Source: a virus. Taken from it: a stretch of 11,639 nt of DNA. Numbering within the stretch: position 1 is the first letter of the stretch; every line of letters starts with the position of its first letter. The notes below the pieces were generated by a model. The model was not told where the DNA came from. It did no database searches and saw nothing but the letters and a program-made list of their open reading frames with translations. The DNA lies in UHGV virus genome UHGV-0070899, one strand, 5' to 3'. This document shows positions 920 through 10,559 of this stretch, one piece after another. Made by a program: the position numbers and the translations under genes.

Positions 920-2338
920 ATGCCGATTCAGCAACTTCCGCTTATGAAAGGTGTCGGCAAAGACTTTCGAAACGCCGACTATATCGACTATCTGCCAGTG
1001 AATATGTTGGCTACACCCAAAGAAATCCTGAACAGCAGCGGATATCTTCGCTCATTCCCGGGCATTGCCAAACGTTCTGATGTGAACGGCGTATCGCGAG
1101 GCGTCGAGTACAACATGGCACAGAATGCTGTTTATCGCGTGTGTGGTGGCAAACTGTATAAGGGCGAAAGTGAGGTCGGTGATGTTGCCGGAAGTGGTCG
1201 CGTATCAATGGCGCATGGTCGAACATCACAGGCGGTAGGCGTTAACGGGCAACTGGTCGAATACCGCTATGATGGCACGGTTAAAACCGTCTCAAACTGG
1301 CCTGCAGACAGCGGGTTTATGCAGTATGAGTTAGGTTCTGTTCGCGACATTACGCGTTTACGTGGGCGTTATGCGTGGTCAAAAGACGGCACTGATTCAT
1401 GGTTTATCACTGACCCTGAAGACGAATCGCATCCTGACCGCTACAGCGCACAATATCGAGCCGAGTCTCAGCCTGACGGCATCATCGGCATCGGAACATG
1501 GCGAGACTTCATCGTCTGCTTTGGTTCATCGACGATTGAATATTTCTCCCTGACGGGGGCAACCACCGTTGGTGCCGCTTTGTATGTCGCACAGCCATCG
1601 CTGATGGTGCAGAAAGGCATTGCCGGGACTTACTGCAAAACGCCGTTCGCCGATTCGTATGCGTTCATCAGCAATCCGGCAACAGGTGCGCCGTCTGTGT
1701 ATATCATCGGCTCCGGTCAGGTATCACCAATCGCCAGCGCGAGCATTGAGAAAATTCTTCGCTCCTACACTGCTGATGAACTGGCTGATGGTGTGATGGA
1801 ATCGCTGCGATTTGATGCGCATGAACTGCTGATTATCCACCTTCCGCGCCACGTCCTCGTGTACGACGCATCTTCAAGCGCCAATGGTCCGCAATGGTGT
1901 GTGTTGAAAACAGGCCTGTATGACGATGTGTACCGCGCTATCGACTTCATTTACGAAGGAAATCAGATAACGTGCGGCGATAAGCTGGAATCGGTTACCG
2001 GGAAATTGCAGTTCGATATCAGCAGCCAGTATGGGCTACAGCAAGAACACCTGCTGTTTACTCCGTTGTTCAAAGCGGATAACGCCAGATGCTTTGATCT
2101 GGAGGTGGAATCATCGACGGGTGTTGCTCAGTACGCTGACCGCCTGTTCCTCTCTGCAACCACTGACGGCATAAATTACGGGCGTGAGCAGATGATTGAG
2201 CAGAATGAACCGTTCGTTTACGACAAACGCGTTTTGTGGAAGCGAGTAGGGCGCATCAGGAAAAATGTTGGCTTCAAACTGCGCGTTATCACTAAGTCGC
2301 CTGTCACTCTGTCTGGCGCTCAGATAAGGATTGAGTAA
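920..2338 (+). CDS. P22 gp10-like tail accessory protein (472 aa)
   Basis: Same length as P22 gp10 and in the expected position after gp4. Stop of the upstream gene abuts the ATG (TAA-ATG); GGAG at about 909-912. Confidence 0.8.
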
Positions 2339-3186
2339 TGGCGGATTCGAATCTCAATGTGCCGGTAATCATTCAGGCTACACGGCTCGACACATCAGTC
2401 CTTCCACGCAATATCTTCTCGCAGTCGTATCTGCTTTACGTTATCGCACAGGGTACTGATGTTGGTAATGTGGCTAACAAGGCCAACGAGGCCGGACAGG
2501 GCGCTTATGACGCACAAGTCAGGAACGATGAGCAGGATGTGATTCTCGCTGACCATGAGCAGCGAATTTCTGCTGCGGAAGCAACGCTTGTTAATCATGA
2601 GGAGCGAATCAGCCAGGCAGAATCAACTCTTCAGGAACATGAAACACGAATAGCTCAGAATGAAAGCGATATTGCGTCGCTTGATACCAGAGTTCAGTCG
2701 CTGGAATCGCAGGTTTCAGACCATGAAACGCGCATCGATGCTCTGGAGTATGCCACTACTCGCAAGAAGTCAGAGGTTGTTTACTCTGGCGTATCTGTAA
2801 CCATCCCGACAGCGCCGACCAGCCTTGTTAGCCTGCTGAAAACGCTCACGCCATCATCCGGCACGTTGGCACCATTCTTCGACACCGTTAACAACAAGAT
2901 GGTTGTGTTCAACGAGAACAAAACCTTGTTCTTCAAGCTGTCGATCGTCGGGACGTGGCCCAGCGGAACCGCAAACAGGTCAATGCAGCTAACCTTTTCC
3001 GGATCTGTTCCTGACACACTGGTTAGCAGTCGTAATGCGGCGACAACAACCGACAACATCCTGTTAGCTACGTTCTTCAGCGTGGATAAAGACGGCTTTC
3101 TTGCCACAAATGGCAGTACGTTAACCATTCAGTCAAATGGGGCGGCGTTTACTGCCACAACCATCAAAATCATTGCGGAGCAGTGA
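2338..3186 (+). CDS. Tail needle (P22 gp26 family) with heptad coiled-coil core and extra C-terminal knob-type domain (282 aa)
   Basis: N-terminus [43 protein letters not shown] resembles the gp26 N-terminal domain. Residues 72-138 are regular heptads ([21 protein letters not shown] ...). The C-terminal ~140 aa is absent from P22 gp26 (233 aa), and the 282-aa length matches what I recall for the Sf6 needle. Start overlaps the gp10 stop (TAATG). Confidence 0.85.
2551..2751 (+). repeat. Degenerate in-frame tandem repeat (about 42-nt unit, 14 codons; HE-RI---E-TL-- x about 4.5) encoding the needle coiled coil
   Basis: Periodic protein motif [15 protein letters not shown] / [14 protein letters not shown] / [14 protein letters not shown] / [14 protein letters not shown] / [10 protein letters not shown] read from the translation. 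Confidence 0.5.
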
Positions 3187-3653
3187 TGGAAATAAAGCTC
3201 ATCGATAATCCGGTGAAGCTTGCAGAATTCCTCAACAACCCGGCAAACACGGGAAATATCGTAGACAGTGGAGATAGATACTACATCAAGCCTGATGCGG
3301 TATATCTCGGCATCTACGAAGGATTAGTGTTGGCTGGCGTTCATGAAGTGCGTAACTTCTGGCATAGCGTTGTTGAATGCCATGCGGTGTACGCCCCCGG
3401 ATTCCGTGGCGAATATGCACTGCAAGGGCATCGATTATTCTGCAAATGGCTTCTCGAAAACTCACCATTCCTTAACAGCATTACCATGGTTCCTGACACC
3501 ACGAAATACGGACGGTCAATTATCCGTTTGCTTGGCGCTACCCGTGTTGGTCACCTTGATGATGCGTACATGAGTAACGGAAAACCGGTTGGAATCACCC
3601 TCTATCAATTACCTCGTTCGAAATATGAGGAGCTAATAAATGTTAGTACTTAG
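3186..3653 (+). CDS. Virion protein in the P22 gene 14 position (about 155 aa); function inferred from synteny only
   Basis: ATG at 3186 overlaps the needle gene stop (TGATGG). Lies between needle and ejection-protein genes as in P22. I do not recognise the sequence itself. Confidence 0.55.
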   Translation: MEIKLIDNPVKLAEFLNNPANTGNIVDSGDRYYIKPDAVYLGIYEGLVLAGVHEVRNFWHSVVECHAVYAPGFRGEYALQGHRLFCKWLLENSPFLNSITMVPDTTKYGRSIIRLLGATRVGHLDDAYMSNGKPVGITLYQLPRSKYEELINVST

Positions 3654-4299
3654 CGAAAGCTTCAAGAATAAATTGCTTCCCATGAATGGGTATATGAAAG
3701 GCGGCAGCGACTCCGGCTCTAAAGCCCAGGCACGCGCAACTGAAAAGGGTATCGAATTGCAGCGCGAAATGTGGCAGACGAACATGCAGAACCTTGCACC
3801 GTTCACGCCACTCGCTCAGCAGTATGTATCAGAGTTGCAGAATCTTTCCTCTCTTCAGGGGCAAGGTCAGGCGCTTAACCAGTATTACAACTCCCAGCAG
3901 TATAAAGACCTTGCAGGGCAGGCGCGTTACCAGAGTCTGGCAGCAGCAGAGGCAACGGGTGGATTAGGCTCTACAGCAACAGGAAACCAGTTAGCAGCAA
4001 TCGCACCTACACTCGGTCAAAACTGGCTGTCAGGTCAGATGAACAACTACAACAATCTGGCAAACATTGGCCTTGGTGCTCTTACAGGTCAGGCAAACGC
4101 CGGGCAGAACTACGCTAACAACGTCAGCCAGTTGTATCAACAGCAGGCGGCGGCAGCGGCAGCAAATGCCAATAAACCGTCTGGTTTTCAGAGTGCTCTC
4201 GGTGGAGCTGCTGCAGGTGCTGCGATGGGTGCTGCAATCATGCCTGGTTGGGGTACAGCAATTGGTGCTGGCGTCGGTCTTCTTGGTTCACTTTTTTAA
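3640..4299 (+). CDS. Ejection (DNA-transfer) protein, P22 gp7-like (219 aa)
   Basis: Strong SD GAGGAG 7 nt upstream of ATG 3640. Size and position match P22 gp7. Gln/Asn-rich middle and Gly/Ala-rich hydrophobic C-terminus. Confidence 0.7.
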   Translation: MLVLSESFKNKLLPMNGYMKGGSDSGSKAQARATEKGIELQREMWQTNMQNLAPFTPLAQQYVSELQNLSSLQGQGQALNQYYNSQQYKDLAGQARYQSLAAAEATGGLGSTATGNQLAAIAPTLGQNWLSGQMNNYNNLANIGLGALTGQANAGQNYANNVSQLYQQQAAAAAANANKPSGFQSALGGAAAGAAMGAAIMPGWGTAIGAGVGLLGSLF

Positions 4300-4311
4300 T
4301 GGAGGTGTCTC

Positions 4312-5724
4312 TTGGCTACATGGCAACAGGCTGGTAATTCAGGCGCGCTTCTTGCCGGGTTGGGCGGCATGAACTCCAACGCTCCAAGAGCAAGTGATGC
4401 AGACGCCACACTTGCATACATTCGACAGAACAACGAAATGGAACGATCAGGTCGCAATAACATCGGCCTTCAGGCGTTACAGGGACTTGGTAGTGTCGCT
4501 CAAATATATCAAGCCGCAAAGCAACAGGAAGAGAATGCTGAATTCCAAAAAGAATATGCGGCAGCCATCCAGTCAGGTGATCGACAGCAGGTGCGAGATC
4601 TGATGACCAAATATCCTGGTCAATTAGAGAAGATTCAGTCTGGTATGAAGTGGGCAGACGAAGACCAGCGTGATGAAATTGGCAATCTAGCGGCAGGCGC
4701 TCGTCTTGCGGCATCGTCTCCAGAAGCAATGCAATCATGGCTGCAAAACAACGCCAAGGAACTGACTCGCGTCGGTGTTGACCCTAATAACGTTGCTCAG
4801 ATGTATCAGCAGAATCCTTCAGGGTTTGGTGAGTTTGTTGATCACCTTGGAATGGCTGCTCTTGGCCCAATTGATTACTTCAATGTTCAGGACAAGATGG
4901 CTGGTCGTGAGATTGACCGAGGTAGGCTGGCAGAGACAATTCGCAGCAATCAGGCTGGCGAAGCACTTCAGGCGAGAGGGCAAAACCTTTCCTATCAGTC
5001 AGCAATGACTGGGCACAATATCGCAGCACAACGCTTGGCTCTGGATCAGCAAGAGTTCGGGTTTAAGATGCAGCAAGCACAGGAAAAGGCTCAGCAGTTG
5101 ATTAGCGAAGCACCTAAGCTGTCAGTAAACATGGAAAAAGGCATTGAGACGGCTGTAAACAATGCCACAGCATCATCAAATTCAGCCAATTCTATGAGTG
5201 CGCTAGCTCAACAGTTCAGAGCAGAAAAACCAACGACAGGTTTGTTCGGTAACGCACAGAACATGTTCGCAAAACTTACCGGAAGCGATACGACATTGCG
5301 TGATTTGCGCATTCGCCAAAATGCCCTTGTTAACAGTCAGGTTCTTAAATTCCTACCTCCCGGCCCCGCAACGGATAAAGACGTTGAGATCGTTCGTCAG
5401 GGTGCACCAACTGACATGGATAACCCTGAGACGGTCGCAAGATGGCTTGATGCTATGGCAAACCTTGAGCGACGAAACGCGCAGTTTAATGAGTTTAAAG
5501 CCGAGTGGATGAGCGCGAATGGCAACCCTGGACAATCGCGTAATGGCGGTCAGATATTGGGGTTGGATGTTAAAAAAGGTGAATCATTGGGAAGTGCCGT
5601 TAAACGGTATATGTCAATGAATACTGACGCAGCGCCAGCGCAAGATTCGCCACCTTCAGGAGAACCACGGAATCAGGTTGGGTCATATACCTCAAAATCA
5701 GGCATTCAATTTACGGTGGAATGA
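4312..5724 (+). CDS. Ejection (DNA-transfer) protein, P22 gp20-like (470 aa), apparent TTG start
   Basis: Size matches P22 gp20 (about 471 aa) and order is conserved. GGAGG at 4301-4305 lies 6 nt before TTG 4312; there is no in-frame ATG until codon 20. Confidence 0.7.
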
Positions 5725-7664
5725 TGAAAGTAACTGCAAACGGTAAGACATTTACCTTCCCTGATGGTACGAGCACGGAAGATATTGGATCTGCAATTGA
5801 TGAGTATTTTGCTGGTCAGGCTGTTCAGCAGCAAACAGTTAATCAACCAACTCAAAACCAAGAGCAGCCTGTAGAACAGCAAGATGGATTTATGTCTGAC
5901 CTTGGCGAAGCAGTAAAAGAGACTGGTCGCGGACTGGTTCAGGCTGGCGTAAACGTGGCAAACATACCAGCATCAGTTGCCGATGCTGTAACAAGCGCGG
6001 CGGCATGGGCTGGCGGCAAACTCGGCATTGGCGATGGTACATATCAACCAGCGCCACGAGCAACAACGCAGGGATTAGAGCAGGTATTTGGACTTCAGCA
6101 AGGTGCTCTGACTCCACAAACGACAGAAGGTAGGGTGTTTGCGGAGGCATTGCCTTACCTGGCTACCGTTGGAGTTGGCGGCGCTTCAACGCAGGCTCCA
6201 ACACTTGCTGGTAGAATTACTCAAGGTGCAGCCCGTCTTCTGGCAGAAAACGCAGTCGGATCACTTGCCGCAAACAGTGAGAAAAATGATGCGGGAAAAC
6301 TGGCAACAGATATAGGTATTGGCATGCTAACAGGTGGTGCTGTTAATACTGTTGCAAAAGGGATTGGGCGTGGAATAACAGCCTTTAAAGGTGATATTGC
6401 GCCAGAAGTGGCGAAAAAAATTGCCACATCAGAATCGATGGGCGTGACACCAATGACATCTGATGTTATCACGCCGAAAAATGCTTTCACTCGCGGCCTT
6501 ACTCAGGATGCCGAGGGGGCTTTGCTCGGGACAGGCTCAAAGCGAGCGGAGCAATATGCAACGCGTAGTAAGTTGGTAAGTAATTATTTTGACCGTTTTG
6601 GTGAGTACAACCCGGATGATGTGGTGAAATCTCTGACCACCACGTTAAGGGGACGGAAGGATGCCGCTGGCGCTGTTATCAATGACGTCACCAATAAAAT
6701 GGGTAATGCCGCAGTTGATACCACAAATACCATGAATGCTCTGAATACAGCGATCGCAAGACAGGAACGGCTTGGGACGTCTGCCAATCAAAGCCTGCTT
6801 ACATCATTGCGTAACCTACGTGAAGAATTAGCAAACCCTGCAACTGATTTGGATGTTACGTTTGATCTCTTGCGTCAGCACAGAACAGCATTTAGATCCA
6901 ATGTTCAGGGAGATGCTATGGTCTTCCCCAACCAGGCAAAAGCAGCTACCAATATGGTAGAGAATGCAATGTCAAAAGATCTTCGTAACGCAGTTGCAAA
7001 AAACCTCGGTGCATCAGACGCAGCAAAATACCTTAAAGCAAACTCCGATTATGCAAACGTTTATAATAAGGTGCTTAATAAAAACATTGCTAACAAGCTC
7101 AACAAGGCAAGCAGTGAAGCCAGTCCTGAACTTATAAATACCGTTGTATTAAGCAGAAAACCATCTGACGTGAAACGAATCTGGAGCGCATTGGATGATA
7201 AAGGGAAAGATGCTATGCGTGCAGCTTACGTCAGCAAAATGGCGGAAAAGGCCGGTGACTCTCCAGCCAAGTTCATCACTGAAGTTAATAAGCTTAAATC
7301 TCAGTCAGGCGGTGAAATTTACAACACTATTTTTTCTGGAAAGCACATGAAAGAGCTTGATGCTCTTCATGAAGTTCTACAGCAAACAGCAAGGTCAGAC
7401 ACCGCAAATGTAGTAACTCAGACGGGGCAATCGCAAGCCAACAGGATAAGGACGATTGGCGCAACTGCGACTCTTGGCGTATCAATGGGGCTTGAGGCTG
7501 GTTTCGGTGCAATGATGCGCTTGTATGAGTCCAAAGCAGCAAGGAATGCTCTCTTACGTCTGGCAAACACCAAAGCAGGAACACCAGCCTATGAAAGAGC
7601 GCTAAATAATGCTGCAAATGCTATACGCCCTATACTTGCACCCCAAATTACAGCAGAACAATAG
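5721..7664 (+). CDS. Ejection (DNA-transfer) protein, P22 gp16-like (647 aa)
   Basis: N-terminus [33 protein letters not shown] matches my recollection of P22 gp16. Start overlaps the gp20 stop (ATGA). Last gene before the tailspike. Confidence 0.75.
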
Positions 7665-7738: not shown

Positions 7739-7797
7739 ATGCCCAAAATTCACCGTGGCCATGCTGCGGCGATTCCTTGTATCTGGAGCAAATTAAA

Positions 7798-9759
7798 ATG
7801 ACAGATTCAATAAATGCCAATGTTGTAGTGAGCATGCCTTCTCAACTCTTCACTATGGCGCGTTCTTTTAAAGCCGTAGCCAATGGAAAAATTTATATCG
7901 GTAAAATTGACACTGACCCGGTAAATCCTGAAAACCAGATTCAGGTTTATGTGGAGAACGAAGACGGCTCTCACGTTCCTGTTTCGCAACCAATCATCAT
8001 TAACGCCGCTGGTTACCCTGTATATAACGGACAGATTGCCAAGTTCGTTACTGTGCAGGGTCATTCTATGGCTGTTTATGATGCATATAGTGCACAGCAG
8101 TTCTATTTTCCAAACGTGCTGAAGTATGACCCTGATCAGTTGCGACAAGAACTTGCTGGTCCTGATGGATATACTTTAATTCCGTCTATGCCAATACATA
8201 TTCAAATGCAAAAATGGCGTGACGATGGTGATATTAGGGGATGGGGATGTGTTTGCGATGGCGTTGCTGATGATTCAGACAACTTTCAGGCTGCAATTGT
8301 TTATTCAGAAGCGCACGATCGGCAATTATTTATTCCTGGGCCGATAAGAATCACGAAGAAAATCACGTTTACAAAGCCCCCTCAGTTACGTGGTTTCATG
8401 TACTCGCCGCCAGTAATTGGTAATTTTCAGGGCACCCCATACGCACACAAGGGATGCATAATCTATTCAGAGGTTGCATCTGGGTACTGCATAGAAATAA
8501 ACCCGCCAAGTAATAATCAGTACATACGCGGTCTGAACATTATTGACGTTCACGTACTGGCAAGTGGACCAGGTGTTTCAGGAGCTGGAGTATTAATAGC
8601 AAACTGCGGATGGGGTGGTTATGTTCGTGGACTTGTTGTTGAAGGATTCCATGGTGGTGGGCTGACTCTAAGTCAGTTGCAAGATACACTTTTTGACCAA
8701 TTGGAAATTCTAGATTGCGGAACAGATGGTGATGTATCTGGTGCCGGTAGATATGCTTTAACAATCAATAATGGCTCCAACATCCTGGCATTCAACAGAT
8801 GCAGGATGGAAGCTAACAACGCGCAAATGCATATTATTAATGGGGGCCATTTCGAGTTTAACAATTGCCATTTTGAGCAAGGTGATTATCCGAATTGTTC
8901 TCTTGGTCAAGAGTTTCAGAGAATAAATAGATATCCATCTATTGTATTGCAGCGGTGCAGCAATGTGAAATTTATAGGTGGTATGATTTTTGGTGCGACA
9001 CTTCAGCAACAGATGTCTGTTCATTCGGTAACTCCATCTCAGGCAGCATACAACTTTTCTATTGGAGGTGACTGCACGAACGTAATATTTGAAGGGACAA
9101 CCTTAGGATTTGGGTATGGGTCAGGAAAAATTATAGAGCACCATGGAAGTGGAAGTTTCAGTAATTGTAACTTTGAAAATATGTGCACAGAAGTAGCCCC
9201 AATTATACTCGACGGTAGTATTCTGTTTACAGGAAATAATGTTAGTTATACCGATAATTTAAGCAGCAATGTCTTTATAGGAATGGAAGCATACCTTGCA
9301 ACTATCAAAGGTAATTTCTTCGGTTGCATAAATAGTTCATCTGTAAATAAAACATCTGGAGCTTTGTTTACTGGCAGCAAATTAAGAAAGGCAAGGCTTG
9401 GTATCAATCAATATGTCATAAGCAAGATGAGCATGTTTACAGACGGAGGTTTGATATCCATAGACCAAAGCACTGAGGGATTCAGTCCCTTGTCAACAGG
9501 AACTCCAGCCATCAATGCATCAAGTCCTAATACGATTTACTTTTTTAGCTCTCCAGGAACCGTCACTGATTTTACAGGAATCATTGATAATCAGAGGCCT
9601 ACATTCTTAAATGCCAGCTCTGGAAACGTCACATTTCAAAATGGCCCCGCCCTTCATTGCAAGGGAGGAGTTAATGCGGTTGTCCCTCCTGGCGAGATGA
9701 TCACATTTATGTACAGTGGATTTTCTGGAGTCAAGCTAGAGATTAGCAGGACATTTTGA
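7798..9759 (+). CDS. Tailspike: P22-family head-binding domain (residues 1 to about 114) fused to a distinct beta-helix-like receptor-binding domain (653 aa)
   Basis: From ATG 7798: [60 protein letters not shown]...NVLKYDPDQ, matching the conserved P22 gp9 / Sf6 / HK620 N-terminal domain. The remainder is Gly/Asn/Ser-rich with repeated rung-like motifs ([18 protein letters not shown]). GGAG 9 nt upstream. The ORF-track start at 7777 is a TTG extension. Confidence 0.9.
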
Positions 9760-9800: not shown

Positions 9801-10559
9801 CTAGATCTCTATCTCAATGCTATCAGGTAAATATTTTTTATATTTAAGCAGAGATAATTCGATTTCTTTCTTTGATATCTCAAATAAAATATCAAGTTCA
9901 GTTTCACCTGTTTTTTTTGCTCCAAACCTTTCATGGAATTTTATTACCGATGTATTACCCTTTCTTACATCAAAATGAGATTTTGCGAATCCAAGCTTAA
10001 GTGCATATGTATACAAAAGAAGTGCAGATTCTATTGCATAATGTGCAGGGGCGTTATCTACTATTACCCATGATCCCCAGCAAAAAGAATCTCCCACTTG
10101 GTCATACATCCTGATGGTGCCTAATCTTTCCCCTGAGTAGTTCTCAATAATAAAATATGCTTGACCTTTACTGCTTTCGTAATATTTCAACCAGTCACGT
10201 TGCTGCTCAACATCTGTTGAGGTTGAGCTGATAAATCTACCTTTCTTCTGATCGGTTCTTACTCTAACTATAAATTCAGCATCATCTTGGTTTGCGTTAC
10301 GCAAAACTATTGTTTTACCGACAATTTTTTTTGCTTTAGTGATTTGTGGGAATATATGGTAACCATTCATAGCTAATGCCTCCTGGACAACATCAGACTT
10401 GTCATTAAAAAGTATCTCTACGCATGAAATTGGTTTCGAGCTGTTGTGAACCACTGCAGCTCTAATAATTTCATCATGATTAAGAGATAGCAACTTAAGC
10501 TCATCTTGGCTAGTTTCTGGAGAGTTAGCCTTCCTGAAGTTATTGATAGTGTCGTTCAA
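9801..10559 (-). CDS. GNAT-family N-acetyltransferase (RimL/RimJ-like fold) with a 63-aa N-terminal extension; the alternative internal start at 10370 would give a 189-aa GNAT-only product
   Basis: C-terminal half carries GNAT hallmarks (TIVLRNANQDDAEF..., WGSWVIVDN...SHFDVRKGNTSVIKFHERFGAKKTGE). TTG at 10559 has GAGGA 6 nt upstream; in-frame ATG at 10370 has a perfect AGGAGG 8 nt upstream. Gene is strongly AT-rich compared with the phage core. Confidence 0.8.
   Translation of the reverse strand: MNDTINNFRKANSPETSQDELKLLSLNHDEIIRAAVVHNSSKPISCVEILFNDKSDVVQEALAMNGYHIFPQITKAKKIVGKTIVLRNANQDDAEFIVRVRTDQKKGRFISSTSTDVEQQRDWLKYYESSKGQAYFIIENYSGERLGTIRMYDQVGDSFCWGSWVIVDNAPAHYAIESALLLYTYALKLGFAKSHFDVRKGNTSVIKFHERFGAKKTGETELDILFEISKKEIELSLLKYKKYLPDSIEIEI

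Follow-up and report, generated by a model that had tools for sequence, protein, structure and literature searches.

Salmonella phage P22 gp20 and Shigella phage Sf6 gp12 are packaged in the virion, are ejected at infection and form part of the trans-periplasmic conduit (PMC4992974, PMC8954989, PMC10461980). Of the P22 ejection proteins, gp20 is present in the highest number, approximately 30 copies per virion compared to approximately 12 copies each of gp7 and gp16 (PMC4992974). The gene that encodes it (471 aa, BK000583 10069-11484) specifies a PF16928 protein, lies between genes 7 and 16 in the order 7, 20, 16, and begins with ATG. Gene 12 of Sf6 (AF547987 10262-11557) encodes a homologous ejection protein of 431 aa, and also begins with ATG. 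E. coli has three canonical start codons, of which UUG opens approximately 3% of genes, directs the insertion of methionine, and generally is weaker than AUG, giving 10-100% of the AUG level (bioRxiv 10.1101/063800).

The gp20-like gene that is considered here lies in a window of 11,639 nt, which is the whole stretch of DNA that was analysed. The window resembles the P22 region in gene order and in the PF16928 assignment of the product, and an earlier note had proposed that this gene is initiated at a TTG codon.

The window carries part of a P22-like late operon

The window derives from a P22-like prophage of Escherichia (Lederbergvirus, Sf6-like) and covers part of its late (virion) operon. 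Comparison with phage DNA revealed mosaic patches that matched the E. coli and Shigella Lederbergvirus phages Louie, 720R6, N7 and Sf6, and the order of the genes was that of a P22-like late operon, namely gp14-like, gp7-like, gp20-like, gp16-like and tailspike. All of these genes are on the plus strand. An Sf6-type tail needle gene was located by profile search at 2338-3186. Profile searches also placed the gp14-like gene (DUF2824) at 3186-3653, and the tailspike gene, which encodes a P22 head-binding domain, in an ORF of 660 aa at 7777-9759 with a probable start at 7798. The gp7-like ejection protein (219 aa) is encoded at 3640..4299 (PF25688 P22_gp7, E=1.6e-91; PHROG 598), and the extent of its gene is identical in the RefSeq annotation of E. 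coli 13KWH46. The gp20-like DNA ejection (periplasmic conduit) protein gene occupies 4312..5724, comprising 470 codons and a TGA stop codon (PF16928, PHROG 917), and is followed by the gene for a gp16-like DNA transfer protein at 5721-7664 (PHROG 770). Just past the tailspike gene, on the minus strand, is an ORF of 252 aa (9801-10559) with a GNAT acetyltransferase domain (PF13302, E=1.2e-10), which may be accessory prophage cargo.

Several of the neighbouring genes have more than one candidate start codon. For the gp14-like gene the ORF list gave GTG 3183, within the sequence GTGATG (3183-3188); the ATG at 3186 overlaps the TGA stop codon of the tail needle gene by one base, and RefSeq selects the ATG corresponding to 3186 in homologous E. 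coli prophages. At the head of the gp16-like gene, two adjacent ATG codons (ATGATG, 5721-5726) overlap the TGA stop codon of the gp20-like gene, and the RefSeq start is the first ATG in 13KWH46 and the second in 0H26. The tailspike ORF was listed from TTG 7777, but ATG 7798, which has GGAG before it, is the likelier start, and the tailspike profile matches begin at ORF residues 8-11. Since this ORF is led by a TTG that is likely not its start, it shows that a leading TTG alone does not establish initiation at TTG.

TTG 4312 is preceded by a strong Shine-Dalgarno sequence

Direct reading of the junction between the gp7-like and gp20-like genes gave TCA CTT TTT, the gp7-like stop codon TAA (4297-4299), T, GGAGG (4301-4305), TGTCTC (4306-4311), TTG (4312-4314) and then GCT ACA TGG CAA CAG. 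This reading reproduced the arrangement that the earlier note had described, in which GGAGG and a 6-nt spacer lead to TTG 4312 just past the gp7-like stop. The full Shine-Dalgarno (SD) sequence, GGAGGTG, occupies 4301..4307 on the plus strand. The TAA codon shares the frame of the gp20-like gene and lies four codons upstream of it, so no start further upstream is available, and the first ATG, GTG or TTG beyond this stop is TTG 4312, which opens the 470-codon ORF. The later in-frame candidates, TTG 4360 (codon 17) and ATG 4369 (codon 20; 4369..4371), both lack a usable SD sequence. With regard to that ATG, the earlier note was correct that it has no usable SD, but had placed it 20 codons downstream; it is codon 20, which is 19 codons downstream, a discrepancy of no consequence.

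SD strength was calculated as the duplex energy with the 3' end of 16S rRNA, using an anti-SD sequence of either 9 nt or 10 nt. For TTG 4312 the values were -10.6 kcal/mol (9-nt anti-SD) and -13.1 kcal/mol (10-nt anti-SD), and the value of -10.6 kcal/mol was the strongest when eight gene starts in the window were scored. For ATG 4369 the best pairing was weak, at -5.7 kcal/mol, with a spacer of 0 so that the paired sequence abuts the codon, compared to -2.5 kcal/mol for TTG 4360; the claim that TTG 4312 is the sole SD-supported start was upheld. When the 22 distinct types of gp7/gp20 junction among the matches listed were compared, the TTG type had the strongest SD (-13.1 kcal/mol), with the ATG types ranging from -5.0 to -10.7 kcal/mol. 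The pattern GGAGG-N6-DTG occurs once in the window compared to 0.84 occurrences expected by chance, so that the case for this start rests on its position and on homology rather than on the motif.

The gp7-like and gp20-like ORFs (3640-5724) share one frame, in which they are separated by the TAA codon and the four sense codons TGG AGG TGT CTC. Readthrough of the TAA codon would yield a gp7-gp20 fusion protein; nothing suggests that such readthrough occurs. TAA followed by T is a strong terminator.

Homologous proteins start at the codon that corresponds to TTG 4312

Sequence comparison makes the gp20-like protein a clear member of the P22 gp20/Sf6 gp12 family. The match to Pfam PF16928 (Inj_translocase) had an E value of 8.1e-71 and a score of 238.6 bits (cutoff 29.7), and aligned residues 13-227 with profile positions 2-217 of 218, thereby beginning upstream of Met20. 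The match to PHROG 917 (E=4.2e-199) extended over residues 1-470 and profile positions 1-509 of 509. No solved structure matched this protein in a sequence search. P22 gp20 was 44% identical to the window protein over residues 1-241, and the two proteins have in common the N-terminal sequence ATWQQ..NSG..LAG.G after the start codon.

In P22, N7, Louie, vB_EcoP-720R6 and E. coli Z0117EC0117, an ATG codon is both present and annotated at the position homologous to TTG 4312, and the protein after this ATG continues ATWQQGINSGGFLAGIG.QN.NAPKA. Sf6 gene 12 likewise starts at the homologous codon, its product beginning MATWQGSNGGLLAGIGGVNSNAP; it differs from the gene in the window in its ATG start, its shorter product and the presence of valine (GTC) at codon 20. 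The HK620-like sister lineage, too, has ATG at the homologous codon, and the ATG-initiated proteins open with MATWQQ or MATWQG. With TTG read as methionine, the window protein also has the M-ATWQ(Q) N-terminus at the first codon of the ORF. The alignment of gp20 homologues that had been suggested as a check therefore favours TTG 4312, since residues 2-19 are conserved and the homologues start at the homologous codon, as ATG, and not at the position of the internal ATG. In P22 the ATG is preceded by the SD sequence AAGGGG (-8.5 kcal/mol), compared to GGAGGTG (-13.1 kcal/mol) before TTG in the window, and the gap between the gp7 and gp20 genes is 10 nt with the genes in different frames, compared to 12 nt and a single frame in the window.

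To sample the family more widely, IMG/VR was scanned with a degenerate pattern encoding ATWQQxxN[ST]G and the results were pooled with loci collected earlier. At least 146 junctions were obtained among the matches listed, comprising 107 with ATG and 39 with TTG, and among these matches TTG was found solely with the upstream sequence TAATGGAGGTGTCTC. Codons 12-19, which were unconstrained by the search pattern, were chosen for a count of variation. Among the matches listed, the third position varied in all eight codons, compared to three of eight for the first position and three of eight for the second; L14, A15 and G16 were invariant and G18 was nearly so, each being encoded by several synonymous codons. 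Variation biased in this way toward the third position is characteristic of translated sequence. Codon 20 was ATG only in the window lineage and in its HK620-like sister lineage among the matches listed, with CAA, AAC or AAT elsewhere. In one TTG-type contig (L012) codon 20 was CTG, so this contig has no internal ATG at that position.

TTG is conserved at this junction in IMG/VR contigs and E. coli prophages

In a further scan of IMG/VR any base was allowed at the first position of the start codon (GGAGGTGTCTC-N-TGGCTACATGGCAACAG), and TTG was present in 40 of the 40 contigs returned. The gp20 ORFs of these contigs ranged from 433 to 490 aa in length, which indicated that the TTG junction persists across many intragenic mosaic backgrounds. 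A recombination (mosaic) boundary lies inside the gp20-like gene, at approximately 4484, and the TTG junction moves together with the gp7 module; intragenic modules have been described for gp20 (PMC10461980), in agreement with such a boundary. In megablast comparisons of the window with the TTG-type IMG/VR contigs, many alignments ended near 4484, approximately 58 codons into the gene. A diverged copy from Escherichia sp. E1V33, with the spacer GGAGGTATCTC and the protein sequence ...NSNSPRASDA, retained TTG.

The junction region (201 nt, 97.5-98% identity) was found in 39 of 5,426 complete E. coli genomes, which came from humans, dogs, cattle, chickens, frogs, a giraffe, a mouse and sediment in many countries, and TTG was present in all three of the complete genomes that were checked. 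The exact junction had no matches in a genome collection holding one genome per species; a broader pattern detected the E1V33 copy in the same collection, together with a Piscirickettsiaceae MAG and a Clostridium, and the latter two matches were judged to be due to chance. None of the isolated phages in INPHARED carried a TTG-type junction, so the viability of this type rests on its prevalence in prophages and on a circular copy of 39.4 kb in E. coli 0H24 and 0H26. In these two strains the junction was found in the chromosome and also on a circular record of 39,448 bp, which has the same P22-like genes as the chromosomal prophage and probably represents an excised or replicating phage genome that was caught in the assembly. 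These records (NZ_CP081786.1 for 0H26 and NZ_CP081778.1 for 0H24; locus L155) are labelled 'plasmid unnamed'.

Initiation at TTG compared to other explanations

The TTG codon at 4312..4314 on the plus strand has the features of a canonical bacterial UUG-initiated gene: a correctly spaced SD sequence, a conserved head to the ORF and no better alternative start. Together with homology and the RefSeq annotation, these features make it very probable that translation of the gp20-like gene starts at TTG 4312. If translation began instead at the internal ATG 4369, the 19 upstream codons would constitute an untranslated leader. ATG is the commonest type of start codon, and the window and most TTG-type contigs have it at this position, but ATG 4369 lacks a usable SD sequence. 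Furthermore, the upstream 19 codons encode a conserved peptide, with synonymous changes at third positions, across the P22, Sf6, N7 and HK620-like lineages, whereas codon 20 does not encode methionine in most lineages and even in L012 is CTG. A start at ATG 4369 also would shorten the match to the Pfam and PHROG families, and the product truncated at Met20 was absent from the collection of 15 billion sequences that was searched. A start at this codon is thus very improbable. The least credible reading is that TTG reflects a sequencing error, or a private mutation that inactivated the ATG codon in a decaying prophage, with gp20 poorly made or absent as a result. TTG is one base from the ATG of the family, and the junction occurs in no INPHARED isolated phage; against this reading, all 40 of the independent IMG/VR contigs, whose gp20 modules differ downstream, have the same TTG, as do a second Escherichia species (E1V33), despite a diverged spacer, and the three checked E. 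coli complete genomes; 39 complete genomes share the junction. The ORF is intact at 470 codons, its SD sequence is optimal, and one such prophage also exists as the circular 39,448-bp molecule.

Translational coupling raises a different issue, namely whether ribosomes that terminate at the gp7 TAA codon reinitiate 12 nt downstream, making the identity of the start codon of minor importance. The short distance from stop to start speaks for coupling, as does the spacing of the gp7 and gp20 genes, which ranges from -1 to 12 nt in every lineage among the matches listed, and the SD sequence is able to pair with the last gp7 codons as a small hairpin. When examined as a coupling device, this SD-sequestering hairpin (CACUUUU/GGAGGUG) was rejected, being no better than shuffled sequence (z = -0.87), and the perfect 7-nt SD suggests independent recruitment of the 30S subunit. 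That coupling dominates is possible but rather doubtful; coupling of gp20 to gp7 in itself is plausible and, since coupling and SD-driven initiation are not exclusive, it refines initiation at TTG 4312 rather than competing with it.

Origin of the junction

Among the matches listed, the closest N-terminus to that of the window protein, Met20 included, was found in an HK620/CUS-3-like gp20 of 449 aa (IMG/VR loci L140 and L156-L160). In this relative the gene starts with an ATG codon that overlaps the gp7 stop codon (TAATG), compared to TTG in the window, where 13 additional nucleotides (TGGAGGTGTCTCT) lie between TAA and the sequence TGGCTACATGG that is common to both. On this comparison, the extra 13 nt (TGGAGGTGTCTCT) would have supplied both the SD sequence and the TTG codon. 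The TAATG sequence remains in the window: the ATG at 4299-4301 overlaps the gp7 stop codon, is out of frame with the gp20-like gene, and opens an ORF of 12 codons (4299-4337, plus strand) that runs across the TTG start. This out-of-frame ATG could capture some of the terminating ribosomes.

A more elaborate interpretation holds that TTG and the maximal SD together are a selected module for tuning expression, in which the 13-nt insertion uncoupled gp20 from gp7 and the small ORF at 4299 could be regulatory; separately, the shared frame would allow a fusion protein to arise by rare readthrough of TAA. If it were true, the insertion, as defined by comparison with the TAATG overlap of the HK620-like lineage, would have established a new gp7:gp20 ratio, and the 12-codon ORF from ATG 4299 could divert terminating ribosomes. 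We consider this interpretation very improbable.

Predicted initiation and consequences for expression

The most likely mechanism is standard, SD-directed initiation at UUG 4312. In the mechanism envisaged, the anti-SD sequence of the 30S subunit (CACCUCC of 16S rRNA) would pair with GGAGGUG at 4301-4307, directly past the gp7-like stop codon, and the UUG, which follows the GGAGG core after six nucleotides, would receive the initiator fMet-tRNA. Because UUG would be read by the initiator tRNA, the first residue is expected to be methionine and not leucine. An alanine residue at position 2 predicts removal of the initial methionine by methionine aminopeptidase, and deformylase and methionine aminopeptidase together are expected to remove it here. 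With alanine as residue 2 and the methionine expected to be lost, the mature gp20 would be the same for a TTG or an ATG start. N-terminal sequencing of the virion protein might miss the translational start.

The ATG codon that every other gp20 lineage examined uses at this position has been replaced by TTG in this lineage specifically, and the TTG is stably inherited. It had been suggested that a non-ATG start would lower expression relative to the neighbouring genes; from the general weakness of TTG we can at most suppose such an effect, and the unusually strong SD plausibly would offset the weaker codon. Given that gp20 is the most abundant of the P22 ejection proteins, there is no obvious reason for selection toward low gp20 output. 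In one lineage, a universally conserved ATG was exchanged for TTG and the strongest SD in the family was gained, which illustrates on a small scale how start codon and SD can be traded off in nature. Because all members of the TTG lineage effectively represent one evolutionary event, the association of a strong SD with a weak codon is supported by one case. The trade-off could be used to ask how the stoichiometry of the ejection proteins is set.

Existing annotation of the gp20-like gene

The TTG codon is an ordinary start-codon variant that already is recorded in RefSeq and GenBank annotation. In all three of the E. coli genomes inspected, RefSeq/PGAP starts the coding sequence on TTG, and the corresponding RefSeq entries (WP_052923889.1, WP_001519611.1 and WP_223584416.1, 'phage DNA ejection protein') have the same SD sequence, spacer and TTG codon as the window. 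Their downstream modules differ, giving products of 458 aa in MS20659 and 470 aa in 13KWH46 and 0H26, as a result of intragenic mosaicism. All of the annotated gp20 starts are computational, and no N-terminus determined experimentally by sequencing, mass spectrometry or ribosome profiling was found in the papers searched for any gp20 homologue. For annotation, the consequence is that the start of the gene belongs at TTG 4312, with a product of 470 aa, and not at the internal ATG. The exact 470-aa protein, with TTG read as methionine, is present in NCBI from 27 contigs, for example as EEV2225555.1, 'phage DNA ejection protein [Escherichia coli]'. The UniRef cluster for gp20 is named 'Acyltransferase', which looks like a mislabel.
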